DNA of 64,000 nucleotides from Escherichia coli (GTDB taxonomy: Bacteria; Pseudomonadota; Gammaproteobacteria; Enterobacterales; Enterobacteriaceae), in the NCBI RefSeq assembly GCF_030013595.1, contig NZ_CP122768.1, one strand, 5' to 3'. Below are positions 5,187 to 5,248 of this stretch, one piece after another. The notes under the pieces were generated by a model. The model saw only the letters and a program-made list of their open reading frames with translations, was not told the DNA's origin and searched no databases. Position numbers and translations under genes: made by a program. Numbering within the stretch: the stretch's first letter is position 1; each line of letters begins with the position of its first letter.

Positions 5187-5248
5187 ACAGGGATAAACCG
5201 AACTAGTTAAAGTTTTTATTATGTTCCCTGCATCAGCGGGGATAACCA
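5187..5248 (+). repeat. Vestigial CRISPR repeat remnants (cagggataaaccg ... gttccctgcatcagcggggataacca)
   Basis: Partial 3' repeat end at 5187..5200, 22-bp spacer-like filler, then a degenerate repeat at 5223..5248; preceded by a long AT-rich leader-like region 4740..5186. Confidence 0.5.

Follow-up and report, generated by a model that had tools for sequence, protein, structure and literature searches.

A probable spacer-deleted form of the fossil CRISPR2.2 mini-array between queE and ygcE in Escherichia coli

The segment at positions 5172-5248 of the window (the whole 64 kb stretch of E. coli DNA analysed here) is, with a probability that we put at roughly 90%, the published CRISPR2.2 in a rare spacer-deleted form. 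CRISPR2.2 is the fossil mini-array found beside ygcE in the CRISPR-II (ygcE-queE) locus of most E. coli. The element itself is already known: descriptions of it go back to 2010, and it is taken to be a fixed relic. What is new here is confined to the allele without a spacer unit, which is rare and recurrent. The CRISPR2.x nomenclature is that of Diez-Villasenor et al. 2010, as used in later papers (PMC3903273; PMC4489801; PMC3737337). In these papers, CRISPR2.2 and CRISPR2.3 are separated by 0.5 kb (PMC3903273), leaders are assigned to CRISPR2.1 and CRISPR2.3 only (PMC3903273; PMC3737337) and CRISPR2.2 has three repeats and two invariable spacers (PMC4489801).

The gene order in the window is pyrG', eno, ygcG/yqcG, queE, the CRISPR locus, ygcE, yqcE and, further along, cysJIH, iap and cysDNC, with gene names taken from orthologous annotated genomes. 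The order queE-CRISPR-ygcE agrees with that in annotated genomes. The repeats of the live array, CRISPR2.3, have the type I-E consensus GAGTTCCCCGCGCCAGCGGGGATAAACCG on the + strand, and the array has a G+C content of 60%, whereas that of the AT-rich block which follows it is less than half as high (Table 1). The relic starts 454 bp downstream of the end of the array, and the stop codon of ygcE is at 5295. The presumed ygcE terminator, a hairpin that adjoins R2, the terminal repeat of CRISPR2.2, is kept in E. coli and E. albertii, and its fold has a predicted energy of -25.5 to -27.5 kcal/mol (z = -4.5). The PGAP annotation at the CRISPR-II locus includes CRISPR2.3 only.

Table 1. Features of the CRISPR-II locus and of the cysH-iap interval in the window
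Feature	Position	Strand	Details
queE (ygcF)	3191-3862	+	223 aa ORF; Radical_SAM/Fer4_12 domains; queE annotated in orthologous loci; left flank of CRISPR-II
leader2.3, true leader of the live array	3863-4200	+	338 bp; AT-rich, 31% G+C
CRISPR2.3, live array	4201-4717	+	9 repeats (29 nt), 8 spacers (32 nt), 61 nt spacing
CRISPR2.3 terminal repeat, variant	4689-4717	+	GCGTCAGC, end CCA; written also ...GCGTCAGCGGGGATAAACCA
AT-rich block between CRISPR2.3 and CRISPR2.2	4718-5171	none	454 bp, 26.9% G+C
R0, first CRISPR2.2 repeat, heavily degenerate	5172-5200	+	ATATTCCTTGTAACAACAGGGATAAACCG; 19/29 against consensus
S1, short invariant 'spacer'	5201-5220	+	20 nt in the 29 nt repeat frame; 22 nt up to GTTCC
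Chimeric R1/R2 repeat	5221-5248	+	R1 5' part ATGTTCCCTGCA joined to R2 3' part TCAGCGGGGATAACCA
GC-rich hairpin, presumed ygcE terminator	5262-5287	-	Just past the ygcE stop; right boundary of CRISPR-II
ygcE, FGGY-family carbohydrate kinase	5295-6773	-	FGGY_N and FGGY_C domains; ygcE annotated in orthologous loci; right flank
cysH-iap interval	21086-22977	none	Usual place of cas-E genes and CRISPR2.1
hok/gef-like small ORF, 50 aa	21351-21503		In the cysH-iap interval
IS4-family transposase	21532-22812	-	In the cysH-iap interval

Orthology to CRISPR2.2 and the 61 bp deletion

Of 5426 complete E. coli genomes, 4049 carry the usual form of CRISPR2.2, as does K-12. It has five parts: R0, a 20 nt filler, a second repeat R1 (ATGTTCCCTGCATCAGCGGGGATAAACCG), an invariant 32 nt spacer (GACTTGTTATCATTTTTTAAGTTGTCGAACTT) and, with a 1 nt deletion, the terminal repeat R2 (ATGTTCCCCGCGTCAGCGGGGATAA-CCAT). 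Alignment of the window to the K-12-like BHUCD01 and to CFSAN018748 revealed that exactly 61 bp are missing from the window, namely the 3' part of R1, the 32 nt spacer and the 5' part of R2. The gap in the alignment is clean, the flanks are 98-100% identical, and outside the deletion the window and K-12 CRISPR2.2 differ at 1 of 123 aligned nt. The repeat that remains has R1-specific bases (CCCTGCA) at its 5' end and R2-specific bases (ATAACCA) at its 3' end, and the crossover is located inside a 13-mer common to R1 and R2, TCAGCGGGGATAA, at 5233-5245. Thus R1 and R2, which are 61 bp apart, would have recombined or slipped within this 13-mer, and the event would have removed one repeat-spacer unit, leaving R0, the filler and a chimeric R1/R2 repeat. 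We infer that the mechanism was RecA-independent slippage or short-homology recombination between direct repeats.

The segment shares with the CRISPR2.2 of K-12 and most non-B2 E. coli its position between the 0.5 kb AT-rich block and ygcE, its orientation, R0, the short spacer and both flanks. It differs in having two repeats and one short spacer, where K-12 has three repeats and two spacers. The window form is a derived allele of the CRISPR2.2 locus and not a different element. The decisive evidence that the repeat-like units are real comes from this correspondence with the CRISPR2.2 of other E. coli, in which there are three repeats.

The first-pass annotation had described a vestigial second array on the ygcE-proximal side of the locus, made up of a partial repeat, a short filler and a degenerate repeat. 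Both of its decayed I-E repeats were found in the window, on the same strand as the live array, and the alignment that it had suggested, to strains with two arrays at this locus, identified the segment as the orthologue of CRISPR2.2, which is indeed a small second array on the ygcE side. Several details changed. The first repeat, taken to be partial and to begin at 5187, is a real decayed repeat, but its motif (cagggataaaccg) spans 5188-5200 and is just the obvious part (CAGGGATAAACCG) of the full-length R0, which is heavily mutated and still forms a hairpin. The separation of 22 bp holds as far as the 22 nt filler AACTAGTTAAAGTTTTTATTAT at 5201-5222 is concerned, and becomes 20 nt (5201-5220) in the 29 nt repeat frame. 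The second repeat, whose motif (gttccctgcatcagcggggataacca / GTTCCCTGCATCAGCGGGGATAACCA) spans 5223-5248, is likewise real, but it is a chimera produced by the 61 bp deletion rather than the product of simple decay.

In the live array, spacers 4 and 5 (4413-4444 and 4474-4505) have one and the same sequence, GGCTTTACGCCCAAAAAGGATTGAATGCAGAT. A single 61 bp repeat-spacer unit has been duplicated in tandem here, the reciprocal of the 61 bp loss in CRISPR2.2.

The AT-rich block and the origin of the relic

When species-representative genomes were scanned for QueE, E. albertii and one divergent 'E. coli' were returned for Escherichia. At the locus of the E. albertii type strain, leader2.3 is followed by a repeat, a spacer, a repeat, a spacer and then GGGTTCTCCGCGTCAGCGGGGATAACCAT, with the same flank and hairpin before ygcE and without the AT-rich block. 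The block is likewise missing from two B2-type E. coli loci, L004 and L090, which are arranged in the same way and contain one or two repeats. This single array, CRISPR2.2-3, shares with the window the terminal repeat variant GCGTCAGCGGGGATAA-CCAT, the flank and the hairpin before ygcE, as well as chimeric single repeats from the same 61 bp deletion. Unlike the window, CRISPR2.2-3 has no AT-rich block, R0 or S1, and leads from leader2.3 to the terminal repeat via 0-2 spacers. The single repeat of L004 (2498-2530), GAGTTCCCCGCACCAGCGGGGATAACCAT, is itself chimeric, combining the first repeat of the two-repeat form (L090 418-510) with its terminal repeat, so the same 61 bp repeat-repeat deletion has occurred in another lineage.

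R2, together with its flank, has its orthologue in the repeat that ends the single array of E. albertii and of B2-type E. coli. From this arrangement, the 3' half of the chimeric repeat in the window, together with the flank, would be the ancient terminal repeat of the queE-ygcE array, and by the same comparison that repeat would be older than the split between E. coli and E. albertii. From the orthology of R2 and its flank, the relic is probably what used to be the distal end of the CRISPR-II locus; CRISPR2.2 would belong to a single original array and would not have been founded independently. The 0.45 kb AT-rich segment would have separated it from CRISPR2.3, the part that grows next to the leader. 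The block-less state of E. albertii and B2-type strains could itself have come from a repeat-repeat deletion, which is easy at this locus.

Eroded orphan arrays have mutated distal repeats and oldest spacers without turnover, and they lose units by repeat recombination. The relic resembles such arrays and degenerate terminal repeats in its mutated distal repeats, in spacers that show no turnover and in the loss of a unit by repeat recombination. It differs from eroded arrays in general in that the distal end is 0.45 kb of unrelated AT-rich DNA away from the live array, and in including an aberrant 20 nt spacer. In PMC4524480, deletion is treated as one of the main modes by which arrays evolve.

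The alternative origin, which was that of the first-pass annotation, is an independent second array in which the AT-rich block is the leader of CRISPR2.2 itself, leader and array having decayed since; the block-less CRISPR2.2-3 of B2-type strains and E. albertii would then result from a deletion between a CRISPR2.3 repeat and R2. We consider this origin unlikely, though it deserves to be taken seriously. The block, at 27% G+C, is directly upstream of R0 and in the correct orientation for a leader, and as repeat-repeat deletions are frequent at the locus, its loss would be mechanistically easy. The block is AT-rich, as had been noted for 4740..5186, although it begins at 4718, right after the terminal repeat of the array. 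The likeness to a leader did not extend beyond base composition: in Smith-Waterman comparisons, the block scored z = 1.8 against leader2.3 and z = 0.8 against the K-12 leader2.1 (-0.2 and 1.1 for the reverse strands), while leader2.3 and leader2.1, used as a positive control, are still recognizably related (z = 4.5). As neither strand scored above shuffles and the control did, the block was rejected as a leader homologue. In a crude scan of 4718-5200 no + strand sigma-70-like site was found, and the counts of promoter-like and terminator-like sites were no higher than in shuffles. By these measures the block is leader-like in composition only. However, leaders diverge fast, those of queE-adjacent I-E arrays in other genera having no detectable similarity to that of E. 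coli, and the missing homology is thus weak evidence. Also against an independent array are the outgroup, E. albertii, which is without the block but has an R2-type terminal repeat and flank, and the CRISPR2.2 spacers, which are invariant across approximately 4000 genomes and so give no sign of spacer acquisition within E. coli.

I-E-like arrays are also found directly downstream of queE (approximately 130-350 nt) in Pseudocitrobacter, three Phytobacter species and Superficieibacter (L062, L064, L069, L084 and L028). Similarity of their leaders to E. coli leader2.3 was not detectable in any of the three genera. The queE-side I-E position may therefore be much older than Escherichia.

Other identities for the block were considered. 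A 27 nt match at 70% identity between 4844-4870 and 4166-4192, the part of leader2.3 just before the first repeat, has no repeat behind it and was put down to chance between AT-rich sequences. The block was rejected as a mobile element: it has no terminal inverted repeats and no ORF longer than 31 aa, no phage relatives were found, and its three 'plasmid' matches are 4.8-4.9 Mb chromosome records filed in a plasmid collection. CAGCGGGGATAAACCA and CAACAGGGATAAACCG, on the left and right sides of the block, were considered as a target-site duplication, but the copy on the right proved to be part of a full-length repeat that forms a hairpin, and the idea was dropped. Rfam gave no match in the block, and two sub-threshold Chlorobi-1 matches are inside the array repeats. 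Table 1 of PMC3661553 includes an H-NS-associated 'promoter island' (entry 2901670_347) in the ygcE/queE interval of K-12. Matched by gene names and by approximate positions in an earlier numbering of K-12, this island probably corresponds to 4718-5171. Like the block, the H-NS-bound island is AT-rich, a few hundred bp long and located between ygcE and queE, and it concerns the block and not the repeats.

The two CRISPR2.2 spacers are AT-rich like the block, with G+C contents of 15% (window 5201-5220) and 28% (K-12 spacer, L001 2042-2073), and they begin alike, with AACTAGTTA and GACTTGTTA. Tested against shuffles and against windows of the block, their similarity was marginal (p ~0.04-0.05), and the possibility that S1 is a shortened paralogue of S2, with R0-S1 a decayed duplicate of R1-S2, was not adopted.

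Distribution and recurrence of the spacer-less allele

When window positions 4720-5300 (581 bp) were used to query the 5426 complete E. coli genomes, matches were found in 4530, covering at least 80% of the length in 4126, the genomes counted as having the AT-rich block, and nearly all of the full-length matches were approximately 61 bp longer than the query. The R1-spacer-R2 unit is complete, at 95-100% identity, in the 4049 genomes mentioned above, with 2990 matches at 99% or more. By contrast, a 43-mer spanning the deletion junction was found at full length in only two genomes, FACU 2024 (100% identity) and strain 2313 (97.7%), while in 3759 others it matched just to the end of R1.

The two junction genomes differ from the window in their spacer sets and, in the case of strain 2313, also in the downstream flank; across all three, differences are found in the CRISPR2.3 spacers, the R0 loop base or the downstream flank. 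The closest relative of the window among the genomes examined, CFSAN018748, is 99.3% identical over 4720-5300 and 99.8% in the block, has the first and last CRISPR2.3 spacers of the window, and has kept all three CRISPR2.2 repeats. Because spacers or flanks set the two junction genomes apart, both from the window and from one another, the deletion is recurrent. Together with the intact form in CFSAN018748, these differences indicate at least two or three origins, the one in the lineage of the window being recent.

Collapse of one 61 bp unit during assembly, in a genome that has the standard three-repeat CRISPR2.2, would also leave a gap of exactly one repeat-spacer period between two similar repeats, and the deletion is read from assembled sequence alone, in a genome whose closest relative has the full form. 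We consider such an artefact very improbable. The identical core of R1 and R2 is just 13 nt, and the two are 61 bp apart, well inside a single read, and the perfect 29 nt repeats of the adjacent CRISPR2.3 were assembled without trouble. The same junction in two other, independent complete genomes of different backgrounds makes a real allele plausible.

The CRISPR2.2 structure is missing from roughly a quarter of E. coli, and the locus takes several other forms. In RMDEC465 (L005 1803-2530) approximately 30 nt of leader2.3 are left and there are no arrays, only AT-rich DNA with an 87 aa hypothetical ORF; in SCPM-O-B-8794 (L009 5670-5800) the queE-ygcE interval is approximately 130 bp and has no CRISPR. 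Both are labelled E. coli. In many genomes (among them matches H104-H110) the locus probe finds nothing beyond its last 33 bp, those adjoining ygcE. In strain 4/0 (L091), the single example inspected, ygcE is truncated and flanked by sugar-utilization genes, for a carbohydrate porin and an aminoimidazole riboside kinase, and the CRISPR-II locus is replaced altogether.

The genes on either side are themselves diverged. The queE of the window is 93.8-94.5% identical to those of K-12, B2-type and other strains, and its protein product is identical to E. albertii QueE. Identity to K-12 is 91.4% in the block, 96.2% in ygcE and 90.3% in leader2.3, which is 92% identical to that of E. albertii, while identity to CFSAN018748 across queE, leader2.3, the block and ygcE is 99.4-100% (99.4% in leader2.3). 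At 3191-5171 and 5295-6773 the nucleotide sequence is unusually divergent from other E. coli, and the region as a whole looks like an allele that is either old or recombinant.

Conservation, function and significance

A 7 bp stem with a 4 nt loop, the type of hairpin that Cas6e needs for recognition, is predicted by folding in both units of the relic. In R0, where double changes have turned two C-G pairs into U-A and one pair is a G-U wobble, the consensus stem and loop are kept (-7.9 kcal/mol, z = -2.9), and the changes in the R1 stem are wobble-only. The chimeric repeat folds in the consensus register at -12.1 kcal/mol, compared with -15.1 kcal/mol for the consensus repeat. R0 is the same in K-12-like and other strains apart from the loop base at 5185, and S1, which is unique within the window, is identical in all E. 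coli loci compared. There is only 1 mismatch between the window and K-12 in 5155-5325, against 39/454 in the block, 32/338 in leader2.3, 42/672 in queE and 56/1479 in ygcE.

These properties could be read as signs that the mini-array has been kept for a non-immune role of its hairpins or its position, making CRISPR2.2 a conserved structural or regulatory element with two or three Cas6e-type hairpins maintained by selection. Candidate roles would be termination or insulation between the H-NS-bound block and the convergent ygcE, or a Cas6e-processed regulatory RNA. The hairpins retained in R0 and the chimera speak for it, with the compensatory changes in R0 and the wobble-only changes in R1. So do the near-invariance of the segment across thousands of genomes, in a region where the block, leader, queE and ygcE differ by 4-10% from K-12, and the fold of 5172-5300, which is well below shuffled controls (z = -4.1). 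However, R0 differs from the consensus at 10/29 positions and 8 of the 10 changes are GC-to-AT transitions; its stem has 3 + 2 mutated positions, and both of the 3'-arm changes would fall opposite 5'-arm changes by chance with p ~0.14. A full spacer unit can be lost (in three lineages), and, as described above, many E. coli are without the whole structure. Moreover, the conserved stretch could be a recombination mosaic or reflect local rate heterogeneity, and other strains vary at 5247-5296; the low divergence of 5155-5325 could come from constraint, for instance on the ygcE terminator hairpin, or from mosaic ancestry. We therefore give a selected element very little credence, while the retained hairpins and the conservation leave some room for past or present selection. 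If it were true, CRISPR2.2 would be the source of a fixed crRNA-like RNA or an insulator or terminator, and the recurrent loss of the spacer unit would mark relaxed selection in some lineages, such as that of the window, which has no cas-E genes at cysH-iap.

Within the 64 kb window, no cas-E genes were found between cysH and iap (21086-22977), where there are only the hok-like ORF and the IS4-family transposase. No further I-E repeats with three or fewer mismatches were found elsewhere in the window, and it has no CRISPR2.1; the type I-F site at clpA-infA is outside it. FACU 2024 has the same hok-like ORF and IS, followed by cas3. With no cas-E genes at cysH-iap, both CRISPR-II arrays are orphans here. 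Functional arrays have spacers of 32-33 nt, a related leader with a promoter abutting the first repeat, and spacer polymorphism between strains. In the relic the sole spacer is 20 nt (22 nt to GTTCC), no recognizable leader or promoter precedes R0, and no spacer polymorphism was seen between strains. The would-be crRNA 5' handle reads AUAACCAU, where the consensus is AUAAACCG. Given this altered handle, the missing leader and full-length spacer and the absence of cas-E genes from cysH-iap, the relic is almost certainly inert and would have no role in immunity here.

By identity alone, scores of 19-22/29 against the I-E repeat are borderline for a window of 64 kb. The second unit (5221-5248) matches the consensus at 21/29 positions ungapped, or at 22 with one 1 nt gap, while in 100 block-shuffled 64 kb windows the best score had a mean of 19.3 and a maximum of 21, and an unrelated site in the window, at 40059, scores 20. 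The significance of the match comes from the two units being 49 nt apart, on the strand of the array and less than 0.5 kb from it. The possibility that intergenic AT-rich DNA resembles the I-E repeat by chance, for which only those shuffled scores of 19-21/29 and the site at 40059 speak, is refuted by the alignment to other E. coli genomes, 4049 of which carry two better repeats with canonical 32 nt spacing at the same site, and is also at odds with the shared strand, the proximity to the true array and the retained hairpin register.

As an ordinary fixed relic, the segment itself matters little, but array-typing and CRISPR-finder pipelines should expect a CRISPR2.2 site. With the R2 half recognized as the ancient terminal repeat, the origin of the block, by insertion or as a decayed leader, becomes a simple phylogenomic question. 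The spacer-less allele described here, the duplicated CRISPR2.3 spacer and the chimeric repeat of B2-type strains indicate that 61 bp repeat-repeat events shape this locus even without cas genes.
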